NCBI GenBank assembly: GCA_977862235.1
Contig: OZ374562.1
Coordinates: forward strand, 682,001 to 746,000
DNA: 64,000 bases
Reading direction: 5' to 3'
Origin: Dudresnaya verticillata
Lineage: Eukaryota
This document shows, in pieces, positions 30,933 to 58,600 of this stretch. A program made the position numbers and the translations under genes. Position 1 is the first letter of the stretch, and every line of letters begins with the position of its first letter. Under the pieces are notes generated by a model. It was given only the letters and a program-made list of their open reading frames with translations. It made no database searches and was not told the origin of the DNA.

Positions 30933-31250
30933 TTAATGGAGATGCTGTGATAGTATAGAAGCGTACATAAATCCTATAAGAGAGCGCACTCTACATGTAT
31001 ATGGCCTACCGGCCGTGTAGACAGATGCGGTGATGGACATGTGACGGATGTGTGGCAGGACGTTTGACACATCTCGGCCGCGCTGCGGTTTGGATCTTCT
31101 GTGGCTGCCCTTGACATCTAGGTCTCCTCCTGTTCCGATGTACGCATTTAAATGAGCAACGAATGATCGGAAGGGCTTCCTTGCTCCCACAGAACGTACG
31201 GGGGAGCGAGGACAGAAATGTCCAAAGGCTTTTCGCCTTCTCATTGGTCC

Positions 31251-31335
31251 GAAGGGTTGGAGTGCCGCCATAATATGGCGGCACTGCAACCATAATGGCG
31301 ACACTGTCGCCACTATGGCGGCACTGCAACCCTTC
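31251..31335. repeat. Nested inverted repeat (cruciform-capable)
   Basis: GAAGGGTTGGAGTGCCGCCATA (31251-31272) pairs 21/22 with TATGGCGGCACTGCAACCCTTC (31314-31335); an internal partial copy lies at 31274-31291. Confidence 0.85.
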
Positions 31336-31387
31336 TATCCAATAAAATTATGCCAAATCATTTTACTCTGGGAACGCTACGAATAGA

Positions 31388-33293
31388 ATGGATTGCAAAG
31401 GTTCGCACGCAGAGTCAACTTATGTGTACTCTCCGTACCCATGCGTGCGTCTGTGTGTTCCACTATTCATACTTCTAGCCAGGGTTCGGCGCAAATCTCC
31501 GCATTCAGGGCGATCTACTTTGTTCCAGGCGGGTTTCGAGAATATGGGAGGCAGTACCGCCAGCTGTGCCCAGTTTCTTTCCACAAATGCGGAGGGGCAA
31601 GAGGTCGAGTATATCACTGCTGGCCTGAACTCAATTGTCCAAATGGTCGCCGTTATCGAGGGGTACGCGAGGACACAAACCTCCCTCCGAACGCTCACCG
31701 TAGGTGTGTATGTGTGTTGTACAGTGGACGGTCAAGGTAGAAGGGCATTTACACTAAGTGTTCCTGAGCTTCCCAATGCTAATTCCTCAAGTGTACCATT
31801 TCGCACCCCTTCATCGGTACCAACGGCCGTGGAACCTCCACGATCAGCCGCGGAGGATCGCTCGCTTCCCAGGACACCCGCTTCATCCATCCGGGCACCT
31901 GTCCCGGGTACGGCTCCCTCCATACGTCTCGTGTCAACGATACCAACGTTTCCTACGACACAGCCTGACTGACGCGCACCGACCAGAGATGCAATCTCCC
32001 GTTACACCGGCCACCATGTTTCCGGAAGGTGGTGTTGAGGACATAAATGTCTCAAGATGTACAAACAGTATATCTGGTCAACTCGTTCGGACGGGGTGGG
32101 GGCCCAATTTCATTCCCCACGGAAGCTGTGAAACGGTCAAGGTTGGGAAACAAGCCCCTGGAATGAGCTTCTTTTGCATTCCTCCCAAGGCTGTTGCTAG
32201 ATGTATGTCATTTCTTCTGGATGCAAGCTTCGAAACCCGACACACAACCTCTTCAAATGTTCGAAACATTGGTTCTGTTAATGGGCGTAGAGCTATTGCT
32301 TTATTGAATGTCATCTACAAGCGGTAGACAGGAACACGGCGAATGCGCTATACTTCGCTAGTTCCTAAGGATGTATGGGGTCATGATATACACATTCCAG
32401 ACGTACGCCTGGTAAAGGGTCCAAGAGGTTCCAGATTTTCCTGCAAACGATTATTTCGTGTGAGCGCTGATATTGGGAAGCCGATTAGCAATGGGAAGGT
32501 GATGAACGTTGGGATAATTGCGCTCATCCTCAACGATAAAAACCACTATAGTTGGGTCGAAGAAGAGCTCGAGAAATTCGCGAACGAGGGTTTGAATTCT
32601 ACTTGATGTCGGAAAACAGTAGCCTGTACCCCACACTGCAAAGAACTTCCGCTTCCATTGTGCATGGTGTTCAGCTCGCAAATAATCGATGATACTACAA
32701 GAATTGGGAAGGGGAGTTTGGACCCCTTCACATCGTGCTTGAAAGGGGTGCCTGTCCCGGAGCACAGTGCTGTCCTTAAGTTTCATAGTGTGGAGAACCC
32801 CAACGTTGTTAAGGAAACAGCATACAAGGGGCTCACGGTACAGCAATTATTGGACCGCCCAGTAATATGGAAGAAGAACGCGATAAGCCGGGTAATTGTG
32901 AACCATGACTTCCCAGATACCCAACATGACATAGGTACTGCCATTCTTGTGAACAAGAACGTGCATTTGGGTGGTGGAGGTGCTGCGCGGAACATGGACT
33001 TGTCTGCAGCTGTAGAATTATGTGATTTTAGGCCGTTCCGTTTTGGGACAGAAATGTCCCAAACACTTCGAATGGCTTTGGACAGCAGGTACACATTCCA
33101 AGAGTGGTGCAGTGCTGGAGAGCACGCCAGGAAGCTACGGAACCGGCATTTTAGCACGTTTCCAGAAATACCACGAGATATATGCCACAGTGTTGTTTTC
33201 CTGTGGGACGGTGGCCACAAAACTAACTCTTACCCAAGGCCGGGCTTAGTACGAAACAGTCTCGGCTTCGTTCGGAAACAACTCACCTTCTAG
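31388..33293 (+). pseudogene. Unknown protein gene, disrupted
   Basis: Consecutive + ORFs 31388-31972, 31758-32327, 32343-32606 and 32658-33293; the last three are in one frame, separated by single stops. Confidence 0.5.
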
Positions 33294-33469
33294 TAAATAG
33301 CTACTTGTACCGTGCTCTCTTTGAGGGTTGCCGGTTCTGAACTTCTCGTAAAGTTTCACGGGTTGAGCCTGCTTCCCCTGATACCACTTTTTATTCTATC
33401 ATTCTTTGCGGGAAATGAGTTCTCATTCTTTCTAGATAGTTTTTCATGTACTGTGTTGCGCGTGGGCAT

Positions 33470-34789
33470 ACTCGGATACGATCTGCAGTCAACCCCGAAG
33501 CCCATACACCTTCAAGGAACGTACATCAGGATAAGGCTACATAAACCATTCCAGCAGGTCTCCACGTATGGGACGTGAACCTGATGCAGACGTTTTGCAA
33601 GGTTAGTCCCTAGCACTTATGCTCGGTGACGGCGTATCCAACAAGCAGCGTGAACTGTTCCCGTTTTGCGAGGATGCGCGCATCCCTATTCCTGATGGCG
33701 AACATTTGGGGCTCAATATTATACTCCCTATCCGCGCCTTGCAGTTTGTATAGCACGGTACCTCCATTTCTACCTACTTCAATCCTGGATACTTCCATCG
33801 CTGTACCTGGTATATGGTTTCCAATTTTCCTGGTGAGCAGGACCACGGCACCGACTTTCAACTGTAGCACCTGAGGCGCGGAATTCTTGAGCTTGTCCTC
33901 GATGGTAGGCCACAAATGTCCCGAGCGTGATGCGTGTAGAGTTCCGTATCAATTTCTTCCACCCTGTCTCTGTTGTACTTCTCAACATCAACCTTGTGCA
34001 AGAACAACCCCGTATTTGTTCGGAATGGTTCTGGTCCTTTGCTTGTTTCGTTAATACGATCTATGTCCTCCTGTTTGAAGTTCCCGTTCCGGATGTGCTG
34101 CAGTATGTCTTAGAACTCGCGATCCGCAGACTGAAATTGGTTCCTTCCCAAGATTGTAACAATGCCAGTTCCGTACCCACTGAATGTCAAAACCCAAGGC
34201 CGTGACATGTGAACTGACCTGCTCTCCTGAGGCAGGGAACCCTCGGTGGCTATTGGACCGAGTTGAAACGGGTCTCCACACAGAACGACTTGGCGACCCC
34301 CAAAGGGCAACGCCGATGATATGTCTGAACAAGCGTATGTGCGTAGGACGCTGTCAATTGACTCCAGTATCTCTGAGGTCAGGAGGAAGACTTCATCAAT
34401 AACTAGGACCTTTATCTTGGCTATCTCCTCTCTTTTTCAAGCACGCCTTCCCACCTCTCGCACAACTTTCTCCTTCGTGACATTCCAGTTCGTAAAAATG
34501 TTGAAGAGGCTCTGTACTGTATTCCGTCCATGTGTATTGCGGTTTCATGATCGTTCGCACATGCCGCTACGGAAGGGAATTCTCCCAGATTTCTACGGGC
34601 GTATTGAAGGATTTGCTGCAACAAGTAAGACGTCCCACTTCCAGCTCCTCCCAACATGGCAATTGACTTCCCATTCTTGCATTCCTTCAGAGTTCGAAGC
34701 TGCGTAGGGTCCAATATGCAGGTTTGATAATCCATTTCCCCTCTGAGTGGAGCCTCTTCGAGTGTGGATATTCGGCGAGCGCCGACCAT
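33470..34789 (-). pseudogene. Pif1-family (SF1B) DNA helicase, disrupted
   Basis: Motif I GGAGSGTS (degenerate Walker A), LVIDEV, PFGGRQVVLCGDPFQLGPI, LQLKVGAVVLL, REQFTLLVGYAVTEHKC*G, GMVYVALS. Confidence 0.88.
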
Positions 34790-35379
34790 TCTTCTTCGAG
34801 TGTGAACTCCGGAAAGGGCTGCTAGGAGTACTCAGCTGAGTACACGAGGGGAAGCGGAATCCACGTAGTGGCTTCGAACGTCTCGTACGATAACTGTTTC
34901 GCTTGTTTGCTTTCGGCACTGTAATATGGAGGGAGCAGACGCAATGGCGCCCCTCACGTGATTTGGACACCCCCTTCTGGTTAATACCCAATCAGAGCGA
35001 GACATAACTATCCCACTCAGACTTCTGAGTAACAGTACCGATAGACAAGTAGTAATCAATCAACATTGAAGCAGAGACGTTGTACTGTATACAGTACAAC
35101 CTCTCTGCTTTCTTCGTAGTGCTGTATCGATCCACTAAGCTGTAACGGTCCACAAAGCGGACCATTTGTGACAATTGGATGTAACGTTTCAATTGTCGAC
35201 GCATATGCGTAAGCTAATGGATTGAAAGTCTCGGTTTGTTAACAGCTATAGTCAGAAGGGAAATTATATCGTCCCATAAAACATTCTTTCACTGCGCGCA
35301 CAGGCAGTATACCGCTACCTGCAACCGTTTCCATAACAAAGCTCCGCGCCTACTTGGGTGGTCTCATCGTTTACGCAAA

Positions 35380-38300
35380 ATGAACTGGGAAAGCGAGCAA
35401 GCATTTATGGAAGCAGCCCAGTCCTACGAGGTGAAACGTGCTGGGGAGAGAAGGATGGGTCGGGACATAAATGTCCCGACCATGCCATACCCTGAAATAT
35501 CTTCGGGTGCGGAGATCCACAGCTTCGACTACATCAAGCTTGCAAGAATTGAAGAGAGTCTGCTTTCACTTCACGAAACCTTAGAGGATGAGGAGTCCCC
35601 GAATATTGAGTCGCGGGAGAGGGCCTATAAAACCATTTATCAGAACAGACCTGGTCTAAATGAGCACAAGGGGAAGGGTGGTCGCCCACGAGCACCAAGC
35701 GAACAGAGTAGAAGGGATACAGTTCCCGGGTATATTTCAAGTCTGTTATCATCTTTTTTCGCAAGGTCTGGTGGTACTGAAGGATTAATTTCAAGGATTA
35801 AGGGACATTTGGAGTCTCACGGAGTTTATTCACGCACTGGTGGGGAAGTTACACTTGGAGACTATCTGAAGGCTGTGAAACAGATTCCGTAAAGCGATGG
35901 AAAGTGGTTTTTTGTCCTGCCTCGAACCCGTCTATTCTGCGTATGCACAAGGCTACCTTTTTTGCAAGTGGGGCTGTCTAATACGCTAGCAATGGACCGA
36001 CATTTGGTCAGCTCTTGGATCGGAATTCAGGGAGAGATGTTCTGCACTTGTGTTGGTATTACCCAGTTTCGTATTCACGGTGATGCAGGGTAGGATAATG
36101 AAACTTCATCCATTCACGGGGAAGGTCTACGAAGGGCTATTGTTTCTATCGCAGGGCACATTGGGATACCAGAACTCATTTTTGTTCAGATACGTGCTGC
36201 AGTTCAGGCAGGCTTCACCGATTTGGGTACATTTATGCCCCAGTGTCCAAAGGCAGATACCATATTCAACGGGATGGGATGCCTTCTTACACGTGCAGTG
36301 TCACCCTCACACGCCCATATACACTTCATTCTTGTGCGGATTGTCTCTTCATTTTACGTATGCGCTTTCTGTGATACAACACATACAGGAGGCTGTATGC
36401 ACACAGCCTTACTGCGCACAATTCGGGAAGATATGAAGGAACCAAATGGCCCCGTGCGACGTACAGAGGCGACCGTGCCGTCAGGGACAGCAATGTCCCA
36501 TTGCGTTTCAAGTCTACCACTATCTCCAGTAAATTGCTCTCGTGCAGTACGAGTGGATTTGAAGGTAGCTACAACAGCATTACGAGGGCAAGCTTTCCTG
36601 GTAATAGCACCCGGTTTTTGTAGCTCTTGTGGGAGCCCAAAGAATCCAAAAACCAAATTTGTCATGAAGGGTGTTATTATGTGCACCATTGGACCTTGTC
36701 AAATGCATGTGGAACAATTAGATGGCTCTAATGAGAAGTGTTCGGGGAAGGTTCATTCAGAAGGAAAAGATTATTGCCTATTTTTCCAGTCTCTGGTAAG
36801 TGCGGCTACTCACATCCTTCTCAGAAGGGAACCTACTGGGGTTCTGTTGGGGAACGGGACATTGAACAGTATCTTAAATCATTATCATTCTCAAGCAGAA
36901 AGTGCTGCGAGAAGTGGTGTCCTGCCAGGGGGTGCTCCAAGTCGGTCAATTGAGACACTTCATGTCATGTGTTCTGCAATGGTGAAACTAATGACTAAAA
37001 AGCCTCCTCCCTCCCTATTCACGTGCTCCCAATGTGTAAGCGATGACATTCCCATTCTGTGCATCGATGGAATTCAGCTTGGCTACTTGAAGTCGAAGCA
37101 GGTTTCACTGAAGAATGTGTACGAGAGATGTGATCCGATACCCGCGTCTCGATCCCTCAGGAAAATTCAAACGAAGTGGCCCCTCATAACATTCGTCCGG
37201 AGAGAAACAGTTGTGAAACTGCTTCTAAAAGCGCTACATGGCACAGAAGTGGAATGCAGAGCAGCTACAGTGAAAGATTTTGTGCTGTGTGTACGGTTCG
37301 TGTGTCCAGAGGCCATCCCTTCAAACGTTGTTTGAGTTTCAATTTGTGGTGCAGTTGATGGAAATTTCTCAAGAGACGAAGGTAGGTATAGATACCTCAC
37401 ACCACTTCGAGAGCTGACCCGAGTCGTTTTTCATCACAACTCTCTAGTTTACAGATTGTTAAAACCGTTGGGGACATTTCTGTCCCAGATCACAAATAAG
37501 ACAATGTCTACGTTCTTGAGTTCGGAAAATTGCGAAGAGGTGGTAGCATCGGTCTCGCACAAAATAATGCAGTTGGAATCTCCACCAGAAGGAGAATTGA
37601 ATTCAGCTGGTGTTATTTGGAACTTCTGGTATAATGCAAGTCCGCGATGGATTAGGTCTGGATGCAAGGATGTTTTAAGCTTATACAAGATGTTTCTGCA
37701 GGGATCAGTATGTCAGGTCATCAGGAGGACCGACATCATGTCCGTCCTACGTTTGGGTGCAAGATGTTTAAATGGGACTATCGCCGAGGTACAAGAGCTT
37801 TCGCGAAAGCCAAACATTCTCGCTGAGACTGAGGGTGAAACAAGCATTTTAGCGGCACATAGACTACTACAAGCCGGCTTGGGAATACGTTTTGCAGTGG
37901 AAAGGGATAGCAATGCCATGCAGCACCGACAGGACGGACGGACGATGCGTTCATGGCTGGGTCACGTGTTAGGGGCTTGTTACCGCCTGGTAATGGACTT
38001 TTACACGTACTACGATGCTCCCCTCCGCACAAGTTCTGCGGTTGAATACGCAGCGAAATGGAAGGGTTAGGACAGAACTGTCCTGAAGAATTTATTACGC
38101 CAACATCATTCGGAGATGAAAACCGAATGGAACAGTGAATTGGAGGAGGCTTTCCGGACAGCTCAATAATTCCCAGGGAGGGAACGAGTATGGCCTCTTC
38201 CTTTCAACAAAGATGAGATATCATCTTGAATTGAAGGGCTAGGGCCATGTTCAAAAGACTTCAAACAAAAGCAGAACCATTTCACGCCAGGTGTGATGAC

Positions 38301-38849
38301 CATTTCATGCCGATGTCGAAATCCAATCATGTTTGGTACGAAGGTACTATACCGCATTGAGGGACCAAAACCAAAATAGTTTTGAATATGGTGCTATCCA
38401 GATTTCCAAAGTTTCCAAGGTTACTTGTCTACGACTTCTCAATGTGACTTCTCTCGTGTGGTCTATACAGCAGCGCTATAAACGTTTTATTGTGGGCACT
38501 AGAGGGAACCACAATAGTGAGTGACAAGTTTCATGTCGGCAACCATACAGCTTGCTCGCCGTCCTACAATCCGAAGGTGTACACAGAACTGGATCCTTCA
38601 AACACAGTGTCTCATGAGCAGCGAAACAGTTCAATTCAATTGATTACTAGAACATTACGAAACTGCGGCCATGAACTATACACAGTACTTCTTGCCTACT
38701 ACACTATGATAGGAAATGTGAAGGCAAAAACTCGAGCTTCCGTCAGGTTTCAAAGCAGGGCTAAACTCATATCCGAACATGACCTTGAATGGGGATACTT
38801 CGAGTGTTTAGAAATGCGTTGTTTATGTTGTCCTTCCAACTCGCACTGA
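35380..38849 (+). pseudogene. SWIM-finger + KDZ (Kyakuja-Dileera-Zisupton)-type transposase, disrupted
   Basis: SWIM-like CAFC...GCMH; CSSCG; FTCSQC...LCIDGIQLG; CSKDF...FTPGVMTISCRCRNP; RFPKFPRLLVYDF; DKFHVGNHTACSPSYN...NTVSHEQRNS. Several stops and frameshifts. Confidence 0.78.
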
Positions 38850-38999
38850 AATTGTGTTATGATAACATGCATGTAATAAATGTATTGCTAGTGCTTTTAC
38901 ACAATTGCATGCATCTGTGCGTCTATCGTTCAGTTATCTATATTGAATATTCTTATGAATCGGACCTAAATGTCTTAAATACAACAAAGAGGACAACAC

Positions 39000-40900
39000 G
39001 GGCGCCACAGAAAAGCGATATCGCTTTGCTGTGCGTATGAGCACGAGACAGAAATGTCCTCCACAAATGAAAGCTTTCATTTATGGAGGACATTTTTGTC
39101 CCCTAGGGGTCAATGCACTTTGAATATGGAACCATCCGGACGTAAATGTCTTCCACAAATGAAAAGTGTCAACTGACTGTGGATATGGTGTTATGTGCAT
39201 ATATGAGAATGCGTTTCACCCATATGGGACTCATATGAGTGCCCCTAGGTCTCCTGAAAGTCTTTTCTTCTGTTCACGTCATTTTCGTCCCACTCTGCAA
39301 ATACACGTAGTATGCAATGTATTTCACCAAATGGTATCTGAGAACGGCCGTTCGCCGACCCCCGGGTGAATCTCGATTCATCTGTGTGCAGCCATTTCTG
39401 TCTCACATGTGAGAGACAAATGTCTCTCTTGCCTCGCCAATGGGTGAGGTAAAAGCATTTGTATGTGATGTATCGAAACTTTGTCTAAATATCTACACAT
39501 CAATAAACAACTTCAATTGTTACTAATCTACGTATGCACATGATGCATGCATCATGATGCATCCATTATGTGCCTACATACAACAGTAGCATTATTTCAC
39601 CGACCAAAACAGCCACGCCTGGTTGTGTGTGTTAGTAGAATCGTATGATTTCAAATCATAACAGTAACAATGTTATATATCATAGGTTACTAGTCAACAG
39701 CTGTCCAAGATTCGATGCAAACGTTCATACGTATACGTATATATATATGTGTATACAAACTTTGCATATGCCGCGGAATGGGAAGAAATCTTTAAACTGT
39801 ACGCTCAACCGTCATGAATCATGTATGTGTCAACATCGCCAGACAGACGTCTGTGACGTCTGTGACGTCTGTCTGGCGATGTTACGTACGTACAGATATA
39901 TGTACATCTGGTCATGATATATGATCTGTCTATACATGTATGTATGAAGGTGACGGTGATAATACCATCTTCACATAGATGTTATGGAATGATATGACCT
40001 TTTGAAGTCATGATGCATATGAATGTGCACATTAATTTGCATGCACATCATCACAAAACTAGTTTTGCAACCATGGCCGCGGTTACTGTGCCCACAGTTA
40101 CGAAGGTTCGTACAACTGGCTTGCAGCACCCGGAGGTAGTCGTATTTCATCGCCTGTAAACTATAGTAGAGATGTATACAATTGCGACTTTATTTAACCC
40201 GGCCCATCTTTATATTCCCGCATAAAACTTAAGTTACCAACATCCAACAGAGATTACCCCAAAATACTAGAGTTTAAAATCTTGGATATGTCATATTGGA
40301 GTGACGATATTTTTGTGTCGACGCAACTGAAGGATCCTTCAGACCGGGACATAAATTTCCCAAGGCCCTGGTGGTCGTGGACAATCCAGAGAACCTTCAG
40401 AAACGTTTGATAACATATATATAAGATCGCTCGAGCGAATGAGAAAATCCATATATGCGCATAGGGCAATACTGTCTAGACATGATGATCAATATGCGCT
40501 CACGAAATCAGCATCTATGTGGTTATAACCGGATACATCCGTCCGGATACCAGTCATATGACCGGGTCATTTGAGCCGCACGCGGTGCACCGTGCTACTG
40601 AAATATCATAAACTAATCTTAATGTTAACATGTTAACATGATTAATTAACATGAATCCATAACCTCAGCCATGGTTTCATGGGTTCAACTTGATTTCATG
40701 AGTTCAACCTGCAGGTATACCATAGTAACAAATGATCATTTGTTACCATTTGTTCGGACAAATCCCCAGTTCTAATATAGTGTTGACCGCAAAAGTGTCT
40801 CACTCTTTTATCAGGAATTAATGTACATGTACAACTTTCTCAACGTTGAACTTTCACCACAGTCGCGACTTCTGCAACATGTTCTGCAAAACAATTGCAC
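39000..40900. other. AT-rich non-coding palindrome field
   Basis: Perfect palindromes at 39012-39027, 39065-39082, 39539-39556, 40054-40067, 40622-40639 and 40725-40746, plus a hairpin with 20-bp arms at 39832-39883. Confidence 0.85.
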
Positions 40901-42280
40901 CGCAACCATGTTTGTGACACAGCGGGCAGCCGGAAGATTTATTCTCTAAAAGGTTGGACAAGAATATCTTCGCTCCAGTATGTTATGGCAGTGTTAACAC
41001 AGATAATTCTCTGCACAATACGAGTTGCCCTCCCACACATTCCAACCGTGTACGCATTGAAATGATTCATGAATCCCGAGAATATTCTCGGGCTAAGTGG
41101 TTGCACGGCCGGCCGCATGGGTCCACTCTCAGTTCTCAAATCTTCGTGGCCTCTTCCTCTGTCGCCTTGGGTTGCGACGCGCCTCGCGCGGATCAGCCTG
41201 AACGGCCGGCTCAGAAATCACCGGTTCATGTTCGGCCGCCGCTGCCTGCGCCAAACGTGGCGTACCACTTTCCTCTCCACCCTGAGTATCTGCAGCCGCG
41301 TTAGGCCTGGCAGGAGCTCCACTGGGTCCCACACTTACCGTCTCCGACCCACTCTGATTAACTTGAGATATCTGCTTCGAAGCCACGAGGTCTGCCTGGG
41401 ATATGTGTTCCTTCCACTCCAGATCCAGCTTCTCAACCATGTCCTACAGCACGACTTGAAACTGTGTCTCTCCGCTTGGATGCTTTACTTTCTTGAGGGT
41501 ATCCGCACCATTCTCATCAACGGCCACCTCCAAACTGTCTACTAGCTCTAGAGCTTCTTTAGCTGCCGGAAATGTAGGTGATTTCTTCTCCTTGCACTCC
41601 CGACCGAGAAGGTCCTGGGACATTTCTGTCTCTACAGATGGCTTTGGTGCTTTCGATCCGCATATCCCATCTTTGGTACCAATATCTGCACCAGACAGCG
41701 TGCGCTGTTCCCGGAGAGTCCTCTATTCTTCACAACAACATCTCCATCATCATCACCCGTTAGCGACGCCGTTGACTTCTTCTCTCTGTCTTCGACTGCG
41801 TTCGAACCCGAATCTTTCTCGATCTCCTTCGGAGTTTCAACAGCACCACCGGCTGGGTTCGAAATCCAGTAGCGACATATGAATATATACTGATACCCAT
41901 TCTCACGCCATTTGACATAACAGCTGTGCTAGAAGTCGGTAGCACAGAGACGGCCTGTGCCCCGAGCGGAGTAGCAGCAGCGTCACGAATCGTACCACCA
42001 CCTGGCGGGATGCAGTTGCGCGACTGCGGGAATCGTGACATTATTCCCGCACTTTATTGAGTGCGCGTACCACGGGACATTTCTGTCTGAAGAAATGGTT
42101 TGCCTGCTGTACCAGCATCGACTGCTCAGGAACCACCCCCAGCATCCCTCAGCGCTAGCATGATACTAGCCTTCCCATTCCTACTTCCGACGGCACGCAT
42201 CCCGCGGGATTCAGCATCATCAGGAGTAGAGTCCTCCTTCACAGTTTCAGCAGCATACTTAGAACCTGCTCCTGGGCAAA

Positions 42281-43407
42281 TCACGGGAACAACTGCAGGG
42301 ACGCGCTGTCTGTCCCCAGGGACAGACAACGCCCGAGCGGAGCAGCCACATCATCATGTACCGGAACAGTTCCCGCGCTTCCAGCATTTTGAGTGCGGGA
42401 AATTTCTGTCCCAGGCAGCGGCGCGCCGTGTGTGGCAGCGCGTTCACGGATAGGCTCAGGGGTTTCAAAAACAGTATCCCTTTTTGTAGTAGCCGGAGAT
42501 CCTATTCCAGCCACAGCGGCGATGTGACCGGTGTCAATGTTACCAGCAGCTGCGCTAGCGCCGATTAGTCCCCTTGCAACACGACGACTCTCCGTAGCCC
42601 AGGAGGAACCCACATTTCCGAGCGGCACAACTTGTTGGCCACGCACAAAAAGTTCTGTTCTTTTCCTCAAGACTGTAATATCCTTATGCGTGAAACAGGG
42701 GTTAAAAACCCTCTCCAAGTGCTCCATTACCCACAGGACGTATACGCCACAAGACCCGGAATCGTTTTGGACTGGATATCTATGCAAGTGGGATTCAAAC
42801 ACGGGCCAGTCACCAATGTCACTGTACAAGTCCCCGACTGACGTCTCGAGGTACGTCTTGAAACCCCGAAAGATGTTGGCCAGGAAGTAACTGGATTTGG
42901 AAATTCCAAGGCTGTCGTATGTGAGGAAAATCCGCTCCTTGAAGTTAACAGATAGCAAGCTCCAGTGCTGCGGTGCTCCGACCCCCCGCCAGTCCAAGTT
43001 GATTGGGTACATGAGGACATTAATGTCCTCACGGGCCAGCTGCACTTGCTTATCCAGTTCCAGTTCCTGACGGCATCGTAGTTAAAAGAAGCTCTGTCCC
43101 CTCCCAGAAGCGCATCCATGAAGAAAACAGAGTATACAACAGTCTTCTCCACAACCCCTAAACGTTCGTGCCGTTCCTTGTTCCTGGCGTTAAGTAGGAT
43201 CCCAAAGAGGTCAATGACCTCATCGTTGAGAAAATATTCCTTCCCACGAATACCTTGAAGACTCTGATCATTCACAATCTGGCCATGGGCACTGAAGGGC
43301 ATGCCATTCGCACGAAGAAATCTGCGGTCCTCTCTTGTCAGCAGTTCCACCACACAGTCGTCTTGGTCCTGCTCGACATCTTGTGTAGGCCTACGTTCCC
43401 AGGACAT
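42281..43407 (-). pseudogene. Ulp1/C48 (SUMO-type) cysteine protease, one frameshift
   Basis: FLNDEVID, YSVFFM...FNYDAVRNW, then after a frameshift YPINL...QHWSLL (His), YDSLG (Asp) and QNDSGSCGVYVL (Gln/Cys). Confidence 0.9.
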
Positions 43408-43573
43408 TCCTTCTCAGATGGAGGCATCTCGATTTCAGCAGGCCCGCGTTCTTCCGCAATGGCCTCACTCCGAAGAATGGACACCCACGGATCTCCATAT
43501 GCCTGTTCCTCAGACGTATCCGGCATGATGGTCTAGAATGTTTTCCATACGACGCAGGCCGCTTTGGCGCGGA

Positions 43574-47346: not shown

Positions 47347-47727
47347 CAGAACAGAGCGCCGGGTCGCCACAGCAAACGACTGCGTCCCACGAAGCCCCAG
47401 CTCGACCAACTTTACTGGCACTACAACCACAACAGGCCATTTCACAGCACGCTCTACTATCCCGGCCAGCACTACTGTCCCCAAAGAGACCGACAGCGCG
47501 AGCCCATCCCAGTCCCAACCACCGGAACCTCCAGTACACTTCGCCAGTTACCTTAGCATCCCCATCACAGCCCTCCCCGCTATACGGCCATCATCATAGA
47601 TAACACGGGCATCGACACTGCAACGAAACAACTGAGATCTCCCCGCAGTCCTCGCCGAGAGTGCCAACAACGGCAACGCGCATCGGCGTATATCAGAAAC
47701 GTTCGCGAGATGAAAGCCCAGAAGTCT

Positions 47728-49116
47728 TTAAAGTTTCTCCATACAGAACGCTTCGTCTTCAGAAAGCAGCCGCGCAACCACAAGGCCAGCAAAACAAATG
47801 TCAGTTGCTTCTGTGTCGCTAGCGGTTCCCAACTCACCCTCACTTATGTTCCCACGATTTAACGCAATCTTGAGATCCTTGCTCAAGCGCAGGACGTCCT
47901 TGGACCACTGCGGAGCATGGGAAGACTTGACCCCTATCATTTTCCCGTCTGCTATCTTCTGCAAGTCCACCGTGATCTTGAGGCGGATCAATGAGAATGC
48001 GAAAATGCTGATTCTGTACTATCCCGGGCGTCTTGCTCTGGCGGAATCTCTGGAAGCACCGCCTCCCTGTTATACTGGAGGAGATTGGAGCGGTAGAACT
48101 CCGCAAATGAACGTGCCTCGGCTTGTGCTCTGTCCCACGTCCCTTTCCAGCAGACAACATACTCTTCCGCAATCTTGAACGAACCTGTTGAAAACAACTG
48201 CCTCGCAAGTTCCATATCCGGGCTGCAGGGCTCATCACTCTCACCTGATTATTCCCCATCGCTTCGCATCTGTGTAGATCTCTCGGCAACGGACTGCCTT
48301 CGTTCAGCATTAATGGTTCTCCTTTGTGCAGTTTGTCGCCCGTCATCTCGGGCGCGATAGAGCAGATGAGCATTCGGTAGCGCGGGATAAAATGTCTTGA
48401 CATGTTCGCAAGCAAAACAATGAAGGCAAGTCATCACGTTTAGTACTTGCCACGTTGCAGAGACCCTCAAATTCAGAAGGCACAACTTACAAACTGGGTC
48501 CTGACAGCTTCGATTGCTCTGCCTTGAGACTGTGCAATCTCCGAAAACAACCTAATCGGTTTGTTGCTCCTACTCACTTTATCCAAAGTGACCTTCTTTC
48601 TCAAAAACGTTTTCGCCTCGCTGGCCGTACATGGTGTTCCGTTCTGTTGTAAAGCGAATGTTGCAGCCTCCAGAACGATGGCGGGAGGAGCTAAAGAAGA
48701 TCCGCTTGTCGCTTCGAAGAGCCGCATCCCCTTTCCGTGTCCACAATCTCAAGGTTAGTGTAGAACGTGATGTAGTCGACTGCAGCCTTCAGGTGTTCGT
48801 GAATGCTGGGAGTGTTCGGCTTTGTCGGCTTAGCACCGAGCCCTACAGACGGGAGGAGAGCGAGTTGATTGTCGATTGACTTCAGTGTGTTCATTATATC
48901 CTCATGGCGGGAGGTCTGACGCTCCTCGGCCGCCTCAAGTTCTCTTTTGCGCGATCTCTGTAACTGCTCCCACTTCACTTCAGCATGCATCCATAGCTCC
49001 TCTTTCCATTCCGAAAAGCGGCGCAGAACGCCGTCTAAAGCGCTGTTAACGCCTGTGACGACGTCCCTTCCCCCGTTCAGCACGGCATCCTTGACCTGAT
49101 GCATGGCTAGAATCAA
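47728..49116 (-). pseudogene. Disrupted unknown gene (helical/coiled-coil)
   Basis: Chain of minus-strand ORFs at 48691-49116, 48473-48727, 48249-48485, 47988-48215 and 47728-47991. Confidence 0.4.
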
Positions 49117-49413
49117 TGTTTCAGTCCTGTTACGGTTTGCAGGCGGACGCTTGGTGCTTTTCTAAATTGTGGGCGCCTGGCTAAGGTCACGCGAACCAGA
49201 TGCCTCACTTCCACGGCTCATGCTGCCAGATGAAGAGAAGTGCCGCGGCACTTCAAGCGCTTGTGAACCTCGGGGTTCAGAAAGCGGTCAAGTGAAAGAG
49301 ATCCCTGGCTTTTGCACATCTGTGAGACACTGTCGTGAAGGTGGCTGAATACAAGCGAGCAACTCGCTTGAAGGTCACTTTGTAAACAAAGTTTTGTTAA
49401 CGCCCATGCCCGG

Positions 49414-52400
49414 GTGCCGACTTTGGGCCCAGACAGCCTGCTTTTGCGAAGCGAAACGTTAACAGCCGCGACGGAAGGCTCCACAACAGAAGATTCCCTT
49501 CACGACGATTGCACATTTTTCGTTCCGCGTCGCTTTCGTTCCGCGGCCGCAATCCCCAGAAAAGACTTTGATCAAGTGAAGAATGAAATAGACATTTCTG
49601 CACCCGAGGTTACAATCTCGCGAGTGAGAACGTCGTTCCTTCGTCGTTCCCTCAGCTGCAGCTGCCGTATCCCATTATCTCGTCACCGCAAGCGTACGGA
49701 TTACCCAAATCATCCCATTGTGCACTCTCTTCCAAATCTTGTAGGAATCCCTCTGAGCTCCCCCCACGCCATCACACGACACATTCCAGAGTACTTCTGC
49801 CCGGTCTGCAAGCGTAGATTCACGGACAAAGTCTGCTTTGAGAGTCATGTCCAAAGGATTCACGGCGGACACTTGGGTGATTCCGGCTCCGAAAGCCGCC
49901 AGCACTTGACGATACAGTCCCGGCTTGCTGTCGATCAATCTCCTTCTCCTTGTATTCAGCATTGCCAAGAACGGCAGGAATGTGGCGATCCTTATGTCTT
50001 CAGTAGTCCTGCGGACGTTCCTCCGGTGCGCCATGGAAAGGACTCATTGCCGACACGACCAGTCTCTTCGGGACGAAGGCACACTCTCTCAGATAATGAT
50101 GCCCCGAACGCAGTTGAACCGGGCGAACAACCCAACGCCGCCGCACCGAGTGAGTTCTCAGCCTTTGAAAGCTTCGGAGAGGCAAATGCCCTGGAAACCG
50201 ATCATTCGGCCGACTGTCAGGGCTGGTATGACCTCAGCAACGCCGTCAGCGGGTAGATCTGTCATACTGCCAGCAGAGCGCCTTTTGAAATAGCAACCGA
50301 GCTTGCCAACGGCAGTAGAAGCTGCGACGTGGCCCCAAACGCCAGAAACAGTGAAACGCTTAGAACCAACGTTGCTTGTGAGTTGTTTCGCTTCTATGAT
50401 TACTTCAGCGATGCTGGGGCTGAACTGTATCCCACGTCAGCTCCTCCTCGACCTACAGTCTCCGCACTGCTACCAGCGGTCAAGAATGTACTGCAGTGTA
50501 TTGCATCGCTAACTGCATGACTCTGGGCGAATCGGAAAGCCTGTACTCCCTTGTGGCCTCGCTAGAGCGCGCCCACGTGGAAGCAATCCGTCCGGTCTCT
50601 CGGCAGTTTGGACGACCGCAAGCATTTTTCGGATACCTTGACGCGTTGAGGAAGAACACCGTTCGAGAAGAAGGATGGAAGATGGCCTTCATAAAGTCTC
50701 AATACGGAGAAAACAGAACAGGAGTCTTTCTCTCAGTATATGAGCTCTTCATGAGAGAGCTGTCCAAAGCAGGTGACGTGAACGCCCTGATTCGGTTCCA
50801 AAAAGAGTTTAGGGACGGCCAACGAGTTTTCTCTGCGCCTTGGAACTCTTCGCGCATGGAAAGGTACTAAATGGTGCTTGACCAAGCTTCCATCCCGCAC
50901 GCAGGAGTCCGCTCTCCAGGAAAGGAGAAGATCGTAGTTCCCGTGGACTATTAAGTGATGGGCATATTCTGAGTAGTTCGGGAACGCAAACCGCCACACA
51001 GGGTAGGGTTAGATTTCCAACGATACGTGGCCAGTCCGAGGAGTGGTTTGAGGTAATGATTGCTCCAACGATTGACACTGGGGCTCTTCGGCTAACTCCA
51101 GACGCAACCAGGCGAGAGCACAACGAGCTTTGGCACAGAACGACCTTCTTAGCGTTCAAGGACTTCATAAAGAAGTCACACGGAGGCATCGAAATGGGTG
51201 ACGTTGTTCTGTACCCGCGACTCGGGATGGGCGTATTCGACTACGTTCAAGAGCGTCCAGCTTTAGGACTGAAAGGTCACGGGAGCTTTTGCCATTGCTC
51301 TCGTTGCATCATGCCCACAAAGCCGATGAAAAGAAAGAAACAGTGTGACGAAGTCCATCCGAGGAACCGGCACAAAACAATGTCAAGTGGTGAGAGTTCG
51401 TCCATTCGGTCACGCGCAACAAGTATTGGTTCCCGCTGCCCTGGTAGCCAAACCGAAGGAGAAGAAAACAGGCGATCGGAAACAACAGCGGTGTGAAAAT
51501 AACACAGATCTCGCCATAACCGTGGCCTGCACGGGATGCGTGCAAGACATTGCAATGCCAGCTTGACGTGGCAAAATCGAAACGAGAAAAGCACGGCAGT
51601 GGTGTGTCTTCACGTCGTCTCAGGGAGGCCAGAGGTTTTCTCACTGAGCAAAGCGCCCTAGACTGCCCCCCGGGGCTAGCGTCATTTGCAGGAGCCGGTT
51701 CCCATCCATTTGGACTGTACGATTCCATAGGATACGACACGTTACACGCGTTCGAGCATGGAATAATCCGCCAGTTGACGGACGACGCTTTCCAGGCCTT
51801 CGAGAGAGCACCGCAATATCAAGGCTTATCGAAAGGAGACGTTGCTTCTATAGCCAATCAACGGATTAAAGACCTCCCGCCCGCTGCTCGTATTCCAAAA
51901 TGGGCGCCCTTCAGGCGCAGATCAGACGAGAAGCATGCCGGGGTTACCGGAAAGTACAGTCGCGAACTGGCGCCATTTCTCTGGTATTCTCTAATGGGCA
52001 TCTCACATACCGTCACTCCAGATGATGACGACGTCGTACAGCTCATGCTGAAATCCGACCTTCTTCAACGCAGGCTCCTTGGAATCAACCAAGGTGTTTC
52101 GTATGCCTACAAAACGGAAGATCATATTGAGGAAGTCGGCAGGCTCGGCTTCGAGGTTGGGAGAGATATCGCAGTCATCTTTGACTGTCAAGTAAATACC
52201 AAAATGCAACGTACCATGTGTCACATAACCAAGCACCTGTTGGACTTTGGATGCTTGCGGAGAGGTGGCACGGATGAGAACGAAACGATGCACAAGCAGA
52301 CAAAAAAGGCTTATCAGTGCACAAACAAGCACATTGTCAACATCGCCCCGCAGCTCCTCAGCGCCAGATCATCGCTGTGCGTGGCTGAAGGTGGCTTGGA

Positions 52401-53152
52401 ATCGGGCTGCTTTGCCAAACAAACACGGCAACTGCTTCTCACAAGAGATCCGATTATCGAGCCGTCTCAAATCCAAACAGCGGATCAGGTTGCTTTGCAT
52501 TCTTCAAACAGTGAAAAGGAGCTAATATGGGCGGATGAAATGAGGAAACTTGTCCAAACTTGCACATCGCCTATCGATGCCGAAAAAGAGATCGAAGCAG
52601 CTGAGCATCCGTCCACAAACATGCAGCTGTGGTTTTTTAAAAAAGTCTGCGCGGTTCCGGGCAAGGTTTCCGTGGTCCAATGAAGTTGTGTGGCAAACAG
52701 TGTATGCCGGCAGAAACGTGTTTGGCGCTTCAAATAGAAGGGATGCACTCGAGTACTGCATAGACGGTGACAGGCATACACGCATCCTTCAAGCTATTTT
52801 CAGCAATCACGAGGATCAAAAGAGCAGAATTGCACTGGTTCGGCGCCTTCATGAAGTGGCGCCAGAACGTGGCAATGTCAAGGTAGTTGACATCTACAAT
52901 AATAGGCGTTTTGCATACGTCATGCAGAGACAGGATACGAAAGTAGACTGCGTTCCTTCTTGCAGTTTCATTCACAGTGTCCTTCTAGTTCCCGACCCCT
53001 GGACGGTGGTCAAAAACTTCTCGCGAAGTATTAGAATGAGTGACATCAATGACACTCCGCAAATCCGAAAGCTCATGCGGTTCTTCGAGGTCGCGGGGTT
53101 CAAAAAGACGTCCTTAGGAGCCCAGAAGATAGACGATGAAATCGCAAAATAG
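49414..53152 (+). pseudogene. C2H2 finger + Plavaka/CACTA-like transposase, disrupted
   Basis: CPVCKRRFTDKVCFESHVQRIH; YPRLGMGVFDYVQERPALGLKG..CHCSRC; IGYDTLHAFEHGIIR; KMQRTMCHITKHLLDFG...TDENETMHKQTKKAYQCTN. Confidence 0.8.
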
Positions 53153-54438
53153 TAAACCGAGTACAGGAATAGCACCTGACGGCAGCGGTGGGTTCAACAA
53201 TGCATTATACCGACGCTGAACTTCGCCCGGGTGGAGAACGCAGATTCTTGGGTTTAGTCATTGTTTCGGGATCATCCCCGCAATAAGACCTGGTGTGTTT
53301 CCTGGCCAGGGCAATGCGAAGGTCGGGTGGTTCCAGGTACCCCTCAGAACTCCGCGACGGTCAAAAGACAGCCCAGCGCCGGCGCGGTGTGTTGAAGTTG
53401 CTCTGTTCTGCCGCTCTGGCATCAAAAAACAGATGATAGGTAACACTATTAACATACCGGAGTTCCACAAAGGCCAAGTGCCGCCAGCCAATAGCCGGCT
53501 TTCCAAACATGCCCAGTAGTGGAACGACTCCTTGGGAGTGGGAAACGTTCCTTTTATCCAAGGAGGGTTTTATTTCCTCCATGGGGTGCCCAACATACTC
53601 CCTGATGATGTACCGCTACCGCGCGGTATCGCAGTATACCGCAAGCAATCTGCAGCTATATTTTCAGCTGAAGCCTAGGTGTTTCTGAAATGTACCAGCA
53701 TCCGCAATATTGTTGATTCTTTGGTAAATTTCTGCGGGACAGAAATGTCCCGGCATGCATATATACAAAATGTATACAAAATTACTACATTGGATATGAA
53801 TGCCATATGGATGCTGGGATATTTCTGTCCCACTGCGTTTTATTAATAGAAATTGACGGCATTTGGGCCCACCGGTAAGAGGAACCAAGGGAAGTGAAAG
53901 GACTGCTGCCACTTCCCACAGCTCATCTAATATAGGATACCATACGAACATATGTTCAAGTCCTCAAATTTGACAAGGGACATTTATGTCCCGGTGGCAT
54001 TTACGTGAGTTTGCGCGCGCAGCGCTGCGATAACGAGCCTGTTACCTCGTTAACCTAGGTTGCGCTACGGTACCCTAAGGTAGCGACCTCGCGCGGCGCT
54101 ACTGTACCTCCATGCTCAGGCTACGAGCACGCGACTTGTCCTAACTGCGCGCCATCATGTTAACGTGGTGATCATCCTCGCGTCGTCCCGCGTCACATGC
54201 AACCCGTCAACCAAACTCGTGCACCGGACGCATCTCCCACCTGCCAATACCCAGTCCACACAAAACTGCTTCGCTCCGAATCTAATTCGGTCCCAATTCC
54301 GGGAACAAAAACCCAACGCCATCTTTCGGTCGCTCGACCTGGTGCGATCCACTTCGCTTGCGCGTCCGCCATTGCACCTCGTCACGCCGGCCACAAATCC
54401 AACAAATTCCACCCTTCAACTGCCGCATCACACGTGCA

Positions 54439-55600
54439 CTAACGCTTCCCATTAGAGTTGCTTTCTCCCTCAAGAAGTACGGTACGACGCGGAGCCTTTC
54501 TGGCTCGTCTGCGAACAACCTTCTGCTCCTGATCGGAGTCTGTGACCGCAATACTTTCGCCTCCCAATGGCGCCATTTCACCCCTCGGAGCGCCAGATAC
54601 ATCGCCTTCCACATCTGACTCACCCACGTCGTCATCCCAAAACGCTGCACTGTGAACCTCAAAAACTTCCTCATCTTCCAGCAATGCTTCCTCTATCTAC
54701 TTTAGTGAGTACAAAGACGGAAACACCCGGCTATCTTCTAAGGATTCGAGAGGCGGGTTGTCGATATCCTTGTACTGTAGCAGTTTCATGTTGTTCTTGT
54801 ATAAAGTCTTCGCGTCCGGGTATTCCACGGAGAGGTCTTGAACAGGAGGGAGGGTATCTGGGATGTTACGTAGAACCACAAAGTTCCTCCCACCTCGCTC
54901 TGTACCCACCCGCACACCCGGTTTGTCGAATAGCCTCCACGTGATCATTCCAGCACCTTTGACACGGGCTGCCATGGGTAGATCCACAGAAAAGGGCACA
55001 CCACCTTTGAGGACCAAAATGTCCCCTGGATGCATTCTATTCTTACGCTGTCCCTCTGTGTAGTACGACATGGGAAGAAGAGCTTTGCGGACTGCGCGTT
55101 GAGGCTGGGTAACTGGAGCGATATCGGTCGGTTCAACACGTGTAACAGCTGCATACTGCCGATTCCACCCTATCTGGCTCAACAAGTGTTGCGGGGGGAC
55201 AACTTCATCACCCAAGTACGGGAAACAACGATACAGCGGCGTGATTCCTTCATCAATGAAATATGCATTCGCAAATCCGCCTTTAGACGGAAACAAGTGT
55301 AGCATCTCTAAAGCACCACCGCGTACGGCGGCCAAACGAGACCCCAAAAAGACCAAAAAGACCTGTCGGATTTCACCAAAAACTGGCCAGAACCTAGAGC
55401 GGACCTGCGCGCCGGTAGCAAGCGTGGTAGAGCGGGAGCGCGAAGACGAAGTCGTGGCCAGAATCTGTGATGAGGACAGAAAATCGCCAAGTCGGGGGTT
55501 CAGTTGCTAACTTTACTCCCAACCTCTGGCGGGACAACTTCGTACCTTTTTCGGCTAAGCCGTAGTATGTGGCCAGCCAAGTAGTCCCAAAATCGGCCAT
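54439..55600 (-). pseudogene. Unknown protein gene with in-frame stops
   Basis: ORFs 55394-55600, 54697-55356 and 54439-54684 are in one frame, separated by single stops; ATG at 55600; acidic then basic C-terminus. Confidence 0.5.
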
Positions 55601-58600
55601 CTGAGTTAATTTAGAGCCATTCTACAGTTAGTGGCCGAGGTTACCCCCGTCGGCCATAATATCTACTTGTGTTCCGGCGTCGGGCCAATGTAAGGCCCTT
55701 GCGAGACTAAACCAAGTACTTGTGCGTTAATGGTTGGCCATGCGAGTTAGATTTTGGGTGAAAAAGGTTGCAAAAAGCGTCCGCGCGGACCTGTGCGGTT
55801 ACGAAGTCGGAAAGGGTGCGCGAGGGAGAGAGTTTTCGGAAAATCTTGAGTGAGTGAAGCGTAGATGTGCACTCGGGTGTGTGCGCAGTTCAGAGGCTGG
55901 CAGGTAAACAGAGTCACAAAGGGTTCTTGAAGAGGAGAGGGGTCCAGGGAAATGGGATTACGGCGCGGCTCCAGTGCGTGAGAAAAGAAATCCGAACGGC
56001 TCAGGTGGCTCCTCTGTGCTTTTGCTCTGCGCGTAATACTGCCGATACGGCCGCGCTGCAATGCGCGGCAATGCACTGACTGCAGCGCTGCAGCAGCCGC
56101 GGTCGTGCCGCTGTAGCTCACAAGCACTGCTGCTGTAGATGGCAGTCCAGATATCAGTTTTACTGCACAAGCGTGATCGTGACCCCCTTCTATTACAGAA
56201 GTATCGTGCACTTTCAAGCGTTCCAACTCTGTTGGAACGCTCCCTTGGCGGCAGCCTGTTGGGCCGCCTGCGGCCAGAGGGGTCAGCGCGACGGTTGCAG
56301 CGACGGCGGTGCTAGCCACGACGCATACTAAATGATTGACTCAAATCGAGTGAAATTGGGCCTTGCCTTCTCAGAGGCAGCGTCGGAGATCCCAGTGCGC
56401 TGTTTGAAAATTAAGGCGGCGATAAATTGGGGCTGCCGCGATAATTACCGGCGTCTGCCACCTCTGTAGTTTCACAAGTTCGCTAAAGCAGAGAGTAGCG
56501 AGCAGGGCACTACTGTCAGGTCACTGTCAGCTGTTGATCAGCCGGCCGAGCGTCGCCGACGGCGGCGGCACTTCAGCAACTCGCTTCAGTCCTCCGCCGT
56601 CCCGCTGATCCCGGCATGTCTATTTCTCTCTTAAGATTGTTGACGAGAAATCCCCCTTTTGCCTGGGCGATGACTAGTTCTAAGCAGCACACGCAGAGTG
56701 TTAAAACGGATGTCTGAAGCTAAGAACGGCGCGGCCCAGTCCACTGCTCGGGCGGCGCAGGTCGCGTCTGGTGCGTAGGCGAGAGCGGCATAGAACGCCG
56801 CGAAGCCGGGGCGACGCAACTACGGCGCAGTCGTCGCTGAGCTCAACCCCCTTGCGGCACAATGGATGCTGTCAGCAGGAGCGCTTACAGGAGCGCACTC
56901 CTTTTTGCGGGACAAGCTGTCCCTTAATCGAGACAGCTGTCCTTCCACCGCCATACACGTGGATGACAGTCTGTACAGGTGGCCTACATGTGGCAGTACA
57001 GCAGCACATGTGGCCTACACATGGCATTACAGTGGCGCCAATTAGACGCCTCGTATTGGCTGATTTATGAAGCGCCGCTGCGCTCCTACTCATGCACGAG
57101 GAGCGCCCCCGCGCTCAGGGTATCGACATTGCAGTCGAGACGCCGGCTTGAGCACCGGCGCATCCGCCACCAAGTCCCCTAACTGGAACGCATTCCCACC
57201 TTTACCTTGTACTGAATGTACTAACCTACGTAGCTATAATCATAGACCAACTTAGACCCCCTTTCGGGCTGATAGATTTTTCGACTGTCAAGCCCTACTC
57301 ATGGGCGCCGGAATAGCCGGCGCCCTCAGAGGTGTCGCGCGCGTCTTTTGTACCACACTATCACGGTAAAGGAAGCCCTTTCCTTGAAGCAGACTACAAA
57401 TAATGACTTCTTCAAGAAAAGGAACATGGGTGTGTGATAATAAATAGCACATATTGTACTGTGCAGCGTAATGAGAACATCCCGTAAGGTATGCAAACGT
57501 TTATCTGAATGGAACACCCACTTTACGGGAACCAAAATTAGCCCGCCGAGCAGCTTCTCTAATCGAGACTTAACTGTACCCGTTCTGTCGTCTGCTCATT
57601 GAGGGAGCTCCGTTAGTGCCCAAGGTACCGAAAATACACTCTACTTTAGAGAAAACGGGACGGGAGCTTGTCTTCACATACCATTGTAATAGCAAGGCAT
57701 GTATGAGATCTGAAATTTCCTTCCAGTGGTTGAGGAAGTTTAAGCCTGCGGTATAACGTATTCGTAGTCCACTGAGACTCGGGAAAGCCGCACAGCTGTA
57801 AGCAAACACCAAAACATAGAGATAACGAATAAGGTGGTAGCGTGGTAAAACTGGGTGATCAACGCCAAGGACCACGGTTTCAACGTATGCGCGTGTGAAA
57901 GGGAGAACTGCGAGCAAACCATCACCGAGGATAACCCGATTGCGAGGGGCTATCGAAAGCGAGACTAAACCATATCCGTGAACAAACACTCGAAGGCACC
58001 GAAACACGAAGAAAATAATTTACCGAATACTCTGAGGTCCAGGCGCTGGTTGCTCACCGAGGATCTCTTGGAGTCCGAGCTAGACTATCCAAATACTATG
58101 TGCACGGGTATGAATGCGCGTAAACTCGGGAAGCGGCTCGCACCCAACGAACACGTAATGACCTCGGAGCCTACGAACGGTCGCCTCATGTATGGTGGCG
58201 GTTACGCATCACGCCAGCAATGCACACGGCGCGCACGCGCATCGTGGGCCTCGGAGTCCTTTGCGCAAGACGTATCCGGGAAACGGAAGTGTCAGCGATT
58301 TCGGATACTGTAGCGCACTGTAATGCGAATGCCACCGTGACACGCGTAATCACGAGTTCATCTCAAAATTTGTATTTCTAGATTGTTTTCACGTAGATCA
58401 AGGAGTTTTCGAACACGAATGGACCTTATACCACATAGCCTCCATTGGGATGATCTCGCCTAGAAGGAAAAATAGCACTACAAACGTTAGTACTAGCACC
58501 GAGGAACTCCCACCTCGCTCAACAGAGACGGTCACTGCCGCCCGACTTCAGGAAGAATCTCAGCGCGGCTACCCAAGCCTCACCACTAGAAATGCGTCTC

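Follow-up and report, generated by a model that had tools for sequence, protein, structure and literature searches.

A decayed DNA transposon, putatively of the KDZ/Zisupton type, in the red alga Dudresnaya verticillata with a linked Pif1 helicase gene, nested transposons and a palindrome dispersed through its coding sequence

We have analysed a 64,000-nucleotide stretch of the Dudresnaya verticillata genome (assembly GCA_977862235.1, contig OZ374562.1, positions 682,001 to 746,000 of the forward strand), referred to here as the window, in which a decayed DNA transposon, putatively of the KDZ/Zisupton type, occupies positions 18,170–56,481. The element spans 38,312 bp as found and 19,403 bp once a nested Gypsy retrotransposon and a nested Plavaka transposon are subtracted. 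This 19.4-kb core contains open reading frame 1 (ORF1), whose family is unassigned, a Pif1 helicase, a transposase, an Ulp1 protease, a ParB-like gene and a further accessory gene designated gene X. The features of the element, including its terminal inverted repeats (TIRs) as well as the target site duplication (TSD), are as follows.

18,170–56,481 (+): KDZ/Zisupton-type DNA transposon (putative assignment), bounded by a TIR pair and an exact 8-bp TSD
15,159–15,163 and 18,167–18,169 (+): left TSD, divided into two parts by a Harbinger element that arrived later
18,170–18,218 (+): left TIR, starting GAAC and resembling the ends of related elements
31,346–33,293 (+): ORF1, a broken gene, family unassigned, tail-to-tail with Pif1
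33,397–34,831 (−): Pif1 helicase, stand-alone core with 4 stops and 2 frameshifts
35,380–38,849 (+): putative KDZ-type transposase, start approximate, with Cys/His clusters and CIDG, VYDF, DxFHxxNH and NTVSHEQRN motifs
41,129–43,843 (−): broken gene with an Ulp1/C48 protease domain in 42,281–43,413, outer limits approximate
44,590–46,992 (+): broken ParB-like gene (a lead only) with an acidic and coiled-coil tail, cut by Plavaka, the frame resuming briefly past 53,612
54,282–55,506 (−): gene X, a conserved accessory gene
56,433–56,481 (−): right TIR
56,482–56,489 (+): right TSD, GCTAAAGC

The borders of the element are defined by an inverted repeat at 18.17 and 56.48 kb (E 3e-7) which constitutes the TIR pair, 49 bp in length with 40/49 positions identical, and to which ten ends from related elements align. 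Both flanks read GCTAAAGC, an 8-bp TSD, once the Harbinger element at 15,164–18,163 is skipped, a match whose chance is ~1 in 65,000 per register. In the two relatives with both ends visible, L006 (12.2 kb) and L012 (11.2 kb), the TSD is 7 bp, or 8 bp if the target is taken to include the first C. The TIRs and the TSD lengths therefore correspond to those of the KDZ superfamily, for which the relevant passages of PMC12730594 give a TSD of 8 bp in Zisupton and Dileera and of 7 bp in Kyakuja. The original prediction, which placed a single cargo-rich composite at 30,933–56,000, was upheld to the extent that the gene set lies within one TIR pair flanked by one TSD, with both the borders and the gene list altered: position 30,933 is only the end of the nested Gypsy element, and the TIRs and TSD that the prediction could not locate are those described here. 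The alternating orientation of the genes was confirmed, as was the lack of housekeeping genes, none being identified by Pfam among the 41 window ORFs, and Rfam gave no matches. Decay, considered similar in all of the genes, is in fact uneven, with 6 stops and 1 frameshift over ~1,000 aligned amino acids in the transposase, 4 stops and 2 frameshifts over 450 amino acids in Pif1, and 1 stop (at the alignment edge) and 1 frameshift over ~520 amino acids in Plavaka.

The transposase belongs to a family of ~1,150–1,200 amino acids with 134 relatives at E ≤ 1e-3, the named ones originating from Gracilaria domingensis, Porphyra umbilicalis and Pyropia yezoensis. The closest relatives of both this and the Plavaka transposase are low-GC, florideophyte-type sequences, in keeping with a florideophyte host. 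Acidic and Cys/His motifs are conserved across the transposase alignment, among them CxC..CxH and CxxC..CxH clusters that give no Pfam SWIM match, and we take these motifs to be KDZ-like. A SWIM finger precedes the catalytic domain in KDZ transposases, and Ulp1 and SWIM domains occur in Zisupton elements. KDZ-associated Pfam models were detected in 4 of the 15 relatives scanned, all below cut-off (CxC4, E 7e-5 and 0.005; CxC3, E 0.04; KDZ, E 0.002). The KDZ label is thus a putative one, resting on weak matches in relatives, the presumed likeness of the motifs, and the ends. From the predicted SWIM-KDZ transposase, the transposase itself was retained, with neither a SWIM nor a KDZ match by Pfam in the window.

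Related elements were obtained from a metagenome scan which returned 154 pattern matches, of which 107 were confirmed; all locus counts given here refer to the best 80 of these. The 80 loci comprise 75 of high GC content, which are likely to derive from Bangiales, as inferred, and 5 of low GC content, all from one assembly. Gene order in the high-GC loci is fixed, the transposase being followed by Pif1 and then, on the opposite strand, by a gene designated C4, which is observed in 38/80 loci (L012 16,225–18,969 (−) and equivalents), lies tail-to-tail with Pif1, contains three conserved blocks and gave no family match. In the low-GC loci order varies and content is partial, with Pif1 in 3/5, Ulp1 in 3/5 (L001, L004 and L068) and gene X in 2/5 (L001 and L068), such that a conserved gene order was not seen among these relatives. 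No relatives were detected in viral contigs. The L006 locus carries the end of one KDZ-Pif1 element (1,224–4,819) directly before a complete second one (5,178–17,381), and in L001 MuDR-like fragments at 866–1,574 (−), with weak SWIM and DBD_Tnp_Mut matches, separate Pif1 from the transposase and are probably another nested insert. The KDZ-Pif1-C4 arrangement and a right TIR also occur in L081, an 11.5-kb, 62% GC contig in a bacterial metagenome-assembled genome, likely as algal contamination.

Identification of Pif1 was confirmed by Pfam (PIF1, E 1e-13, 41 ORFs scanned), and the broken window gene is 39–50% identical to an intact 507-amino-acid ORF in L004 (E 2e-77). Pif1 is present in 50/80 loci and in 29 of 38 families, and adjoins the transposase in 28 of the 31 families that are informative, having at least 3.5 kb of downstream sequence, and also in L081. 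Distances between Pif1 sequences are correlated with those between the accompanying transposases (rho 0.83, 351 pairs from 27 elements, 0/2,000 permutations), rising to 0.87 inside the high-GC group, a correlation which shows joint inheritance, not function. This set consisted of the window and 26 of the 29 Pif1 families, L002 and L065 being left out and L001 dropped on account of its short Pif1 pieces. The helicase is closer to cellular PIF1 (E 2e-34) than to Helraiser (E 6e-14), and a Helitron Rep was matched neither among the window ORFs nor by the stand-alone L004 ORF. Helitron identity was therefore rejected, Pif1 being stand-alone, without a Rep match, and accompanied by TIRs and a TSD. 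Pairing of Pif1, or of Ulp1, with a KDZ/Zisupton element was not found in the literature searched, which did not cover Repbase or the supplements of 10.1101/2025.02.11.637652.

The remaining cargo genes are recognised to differing degrees. The Ulp1 protease was confirmed as predicted (Pfam Peptidase_C48, E 3e-11), and gene X is 26% identical to an ORF of L001 (E 3e-15); with Pif1, both are established as cargo by their recurrence in related elements. Gene X possibly adopts a 2-oxoglutarate (2OG)-Fe(II) oxygenase fold, the Atlas lead scoring 0.87 and the fold being predicted at a pLDDT (predicted local distance difference test) of 30.1. Gene X gave no match in a PDB sequence search and no similarity to the ParB-like tail, and its reading as a SET domain is not supported by Pfam. 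The ParB-like call survives as an Atlas lead at 0.89, with ParB_N as top match, and is not supported by Pfam, no profile match (Pfam, NCBIfam, PHROG) and no PDB sequence match being obtained for this piece. Both the ParB and the oxygenase identities are leads only. ORF1 gave no Pfam, NCBIfam or PHROG match of weight and no match in the 80 loci; its possible homology to C4 was rejected, the best values of E 0.005 (12 targets) and 0.18 (six frames) not being significant.

The core is characterised by a short palindrome dispersed inside and between its genes.

31,207–55,027 (both strands): dispersed palindrome GGACA(G/T)AAATGTCC, ~1.9 per kb of core
38,959–39,428: cluster of 6 copies of the palindrome in an AT-rich intergenic stretch

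The sequence GACA(G/T)AAATGTC is matched 27 times at ≤1 mismatch versus 0.61 in shuffles, a comparison which overstates significance, the pattern having been picked after inspection. Distribution of the palindrome follows the borders of the element, the 19.4-kb core holding 25 positions, Gypsy and Plavaka none, and the 25.7 kb outside a single one. A weight matrix detects 32 sites, a density of 1.9 per kb across the core; by the same matrix 12.3 sites are expected in Plavaka, where no strong site and a single weak score, at 51,263, were observed. Half of the sites (16/32) lie inside listed ORFs, where they occupy either strand and three reading phases, one of them, at 45,000, falling within the putative ParB DG..HR motif, while the outer 0.75 kb on the left and 1.4 kb on the right of the core lack the palindrome. 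Four sites in the transposase align to homologues without gaps, by which a small inserted element or an intron is ruled out at these positions. The gap-free alignment, together with this spread over strands and phases, therefore indicates that the palindrome was written by point substitution. The shared hairpin motif of the original prediction is thus a real motif, absent from Plavaka, but a palindrome and not a hairpin, because base pairing in its arms (65 pairs versus 60.0 shuffled, p 0.19) does not covary outside the motif core. Its form would suit recognition by a dimeric protein, and the palindrome is likely to be a binding site of a protein encoded by the element. In related loci no comparable palindrome was found de novo (24/80 loci), and the window motif itself occurs in 8 loci among all 80, at no more than one copy; the complete relatives L006 and L012 have neither a ParB-like match nor a comparable palindrome.

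A different palindrome, CCG(T/C/A)TACGG, characterises the nested Gypsy element. It is matched 29 times in the window versus 1.2 in shuffles, a figure to be read with the same reservation, and 27/29 copies fall in Gypsy at 20,045–30,749, in gag-pol and in the long terminal repeats (LTRs), on both strands. No comparable pattern was detected in the right-hand Gypsy, Harbinger or Plavaka. An antisense ORF of Gypsy, at 20,925–23,183, is a candidate reader of the Gypsy palindrome. Such barcodes in coding sequence were not found in the literature searched, little of the search being aimed at dispersed motifs; the palindrome barcode and the Pif1 partnership, neither of which was found in these searches, are apparently the new parts of the element.

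Gypsy and Plavaka are separate, later insertions into the KDZ element, and a third transposon has inserted at its left flank.

15,164–18,163: Harbinger, near-intact, sitting within the KDZ element's left TSD, with a TAA duplication, TIRs of 16 bp and two genes arranged tail-to-tail
18,649–30,932 (−): nested Gypsy LTR retrotransposon with reverse transcriptase, RNase H, integrase and chromo domains
20,925–23,183 (+): antisense extra ORF in Gypsy, ~750 amino acids, two stops
46,993–53,610 (+): nested PlavakaB-type (EnSpm/CMC) transposon, 6,618 bp, with CATCA..TGATG ends and a TA TSD at 46,991–46,992 and 53,611–53,612
47,728–49,161 (−): broken accessory ORFs of Plavaka, family unassigned
49,372–53,152 (+): Plavaka transposase in frameshifted pieces, their joining inferred, with a C2H2-like finger in the first piece

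The order of events was read from the duplications: the KDZ element inserted, Harbinger subsequently entered its left TSD, and Gypsy and Plavaka entered the element itself. The Gypsy LTRs, at 18,649–20,223 and 30,226–30,932, are ~91% identical and flanked by the TSD ATAAT/TTAAT. The left LTR contains an 872-bp insert (18,990–19,861), likely a solo LTR, whose ends are inverted and which is accompanied by the 5-bp duplication AGGGT. The antisense ORF gave no match in Pfam, NCBIfam, PHROGs or PDB. The Plavaka ends are identical at 25/34 positions, the highest value among 1,866 CATCA/TGATG pairs in the window (runner-up 20), and with the TA duplication they agree with the CATCA..TGATG termini and 2–3-bp TSD of PlavakaB elements as given in section 3.2.2 of PMC12730594.

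The Plavaka transposase is 34–46% identical to 5 relatives, including Chondrus crispus CDF37391.1. The CxxC, D..H, H..H and E motifs were identified by eye, as expected of PlavakaB, with CHCSRC in the ORF at 50,882–51,496 and an invariant E; the H..H motif is kept in 5/5 relatives but reads Q..H in the window copy. No match was obtained to the Pfam Plavaka profile in the window pieces or in 4 relatives, or in a PDB sequence search. Identification as an EnSpm/Plavaka-type transposase was confirmed by the 5 relatives, whereas its role as cargo of a composite was not, because Plavaka is delimited by TIRs and a TSD of its own, breaks the ParB-like reading frame, is free of the palindrome and has no matching peptide in any of the 80 related loci, 300 window peptides having been compared at E ≤ 1e-3. 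The apparent two-transposase composite is a nesting artefact of this copy.

Beyond the element, a second Gypsy (gag, protease-like, reverse transcriptase) at 59,924–64,000 (+) extends past the end of the window. To the left lie two long, intact ORFs, at 4,948–6,852 (−) and 11,842–13,962 (−), probably host genes, of which one has a terminal zf-4CXXC_R1-like finger (E 6e-4) and the other shows an internal duplication of 167 bp, a Thr-Pro repeat and a weak BED/C2H2 finger. Short palindromes or inverted repeats resembling miniature inverted-repeat transposable elements are also present in the core, at 31,243–31,343, 35,069–35,110, 39,006–39,033, 39,518–39,591, 39,832–39,883 and 40,722–40,749.

Combined, these observations are probably explained by one decayed cut-and-paste element of the KDZ/Zisupton type that carried accessory genes and a Pif1 partner, received the nested Gypsy and Plavaka, and bore a palindrome bound by a protein of its own. 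Cut-and-paste movement is proposed because of what is known of the family, together with the TIRs and the TSD: by analogy with established KDZ biology, a DDE-type transposase would cut at the TIRs and generate a staggered cut of 7–8 bp. Linkage suggests that Pif1 may unwind DNA as these long elements are excised or integrated or have their gaps repaired, and we lean towards a direct service in transposition. Ulp1 could lift SUMO-dependent silencing or process an element protein, a suggestion on which our judgement is evenly poised. Somewhat more tentatively, and with our confidence falling just short of the half-way mark, a dimer of the ParB-like protein would bind the palindromes along the whole element, marking it as self, and would bring an anti-silencing activity (gene X, if it is an oxygenase) to the element as VANC does for VANDAL. 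This binding proposal is made because of the form of the motif, the joint lack of motif and gene in relatives, and the similar proposals made for ParB-like proteins of algal transposons, which are suggested to bind their own element (10.1101/2025.02.11.637652 and PMC12477816, in the passages concerned). A broader extension, that red-algal KDZ and Gypsy elements each write a private palindrome into coding sequence which is read by their own protein, and that a Pif1-dependent KDZ lineage spans both seaweed classes, is speculative and on balance unlikely.

Several observations weigh against this reading. The architecture is read from a single copy within the 64-kb window, and the Pfam KDZ, SWIM, ParB and Plavaka models have no match in its ORFs. 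Because 75/80 loci form a single high-GC group and the other 5 share one assembly, the families are not independent lineages. Pif1 is missing from 3/31 informative families, none of the 75 high-GC loci contains Ulp1 or gene X, and gene order differs among relatives. The ParB-like piece is without relatives, including in the 80 KDZ loci and viral contigs, its Atlas score, like that of gene X, lies below 0.9, and its predicted fold is of low confidence (pLDDT 37.5). Gypsy has a palindrome without any ParB-like gene; ParB is therefore not needed for such a pattern, and the selection of both patterns after inspection applies here as well.

The most radical alternative, a pile-up of unrelated relics in which Pif1 is a Helitron remnant, draws on the broken state of every gene, the transposon-rich window and the differing gene order of relatives, but is refuted by the single TIR pair and TSD enclosing the gene set, by Pif1 linkage in nearly all informative families and by co-divergence, unless the TSD match is due to chance. 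It is further opposed by the affinities of Pif1 itself, which is stand-alone in L004, lacks a Rep match and is nearer to cellular PIF1 than to Helraiser, and by the fact that Pif1, Ulp1 and gene X turn up again in other loci next to a transposase of this family. A true two-transposase composite, in which Plavaka is fixed cargo moving with the KDZ element as in giant KDZ families of Ectocarpus, gains from the location of Plavaka within the KDZ TIRs and from the fixed nested inserts described for giant KDZ elements in passages of PMC12477816. It is nevertheless quite improbable, as Plavaka cuts the ParB-like gene, has 0 palindrome sites against the ~12 expected, appears less decayed and has no match in the 80 related loci.

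A further possibility retains the same architecture but makes the transposase or some host protein the reader of the palindrome, in compaction or end pairing or as a chromatin signal, instead of the ParB-like protein. The Gypsy pattern, which arose without a ParB-like gene, and the weak ParB identity speak for this alternative. Transposase sites, as in En/Spm, usually cluster near element ends, yet the palindrome is missing from the outer core; it is lacking in relatives whose transposase is of the same family, and one host factor would not account for two private motifs that each follow the borders of an element. We therefore regard transposase or host reading as unlikely, if less so than fixed Plavaka cargo.

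If the interpretation as one KDZ element with its own Pif1 and palindrome reader is correct, a separate, co-diverging Pif1 partner suggests that KDZ transposition includes a helicase step not yet described, a role that the intact 11–12-kb relatives L006 and L012 make testable. The palindromes in coding DNA would provide a candidate target for the ParB-like accessory proteins supposed to bind their own element, and the different motif in the neighbouring Gypsy suggests that such palindromes arose more than once. Motif content would then be a tool for sorting nested transposons, as it was used in the window.

Comparison with known systems, as presented in the relevant passages of the cited reports, places the element among algal giants. 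A giant element with nested inserts is ordinary for algae, giant KDZ elements reaching 30.3 kb in Ectocarpus (PMC12477816) and Zisupton-3_cRei of Chlamydomonas measuring 31.7 kb (PMC9977147). The window element shares with these a transposase, putatively KDZ-type here and often broken, a length of >10 kb, accessory genes and nested, unrelated transposons, but differs in its red-algal host and in its Pif1, Ulp1 and dispersed motif, none of these three appearing in the passages on giants. Plavaka and Zisupton elements carrying the PAG1–3 genes are described in the red algae Bostrychia, Chondrus and Bangiophyceae, PAG2 and PAG3 being reported on Zisupton in Bangiophyceae (10.1101/2025.02.11.637652). 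Similarly, the window element is a red-algal giant with ParB-like and 2OG-oxygenase-like leads and with inverted-repeat units proposed as binding sites. However, PAG3 combines ParB and oxygenase in one protein whereas the window leads are two separate genes; PAG repeats form tandem arrays beside PAG3 whereas the window sites are spread through coding sequence; and no match to the N6-methylase/SET protein PAG2 was found in the window. Identity with the giant PAG-carrying Plavaka elements of red algae (17–19 kb) was rejected, the window Plavaka being 6.6 kb and the ParB-like gene lying outside its TIRs. The nested Plavaka resembles PlavakaB (PMC12730594) in its CATCA..TGATG ends, 2-bp TSD and CxxC and H..H motifs, but, unlike that group, which was described from fungi, it has no TET/JBP match and the first H of H..H is Q. 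Element-specific short motifs with an element protein as proposed reader are also a property of VANDAL and VANC (PMC5735166), although VANC sites are non-coding and tandem whereas the window palindromes are single, lie in coding sequence and are candidate sites predicted from sequence. Lastly, Pif1 borne on a transposon is familiar from Helitrons, in which it is fused to an HUH Rep (PMC8788227), whereas the window Pif1 stands as its own gene next to a DDE-type transposase, and the element that carries both has TIRs and a TSD.

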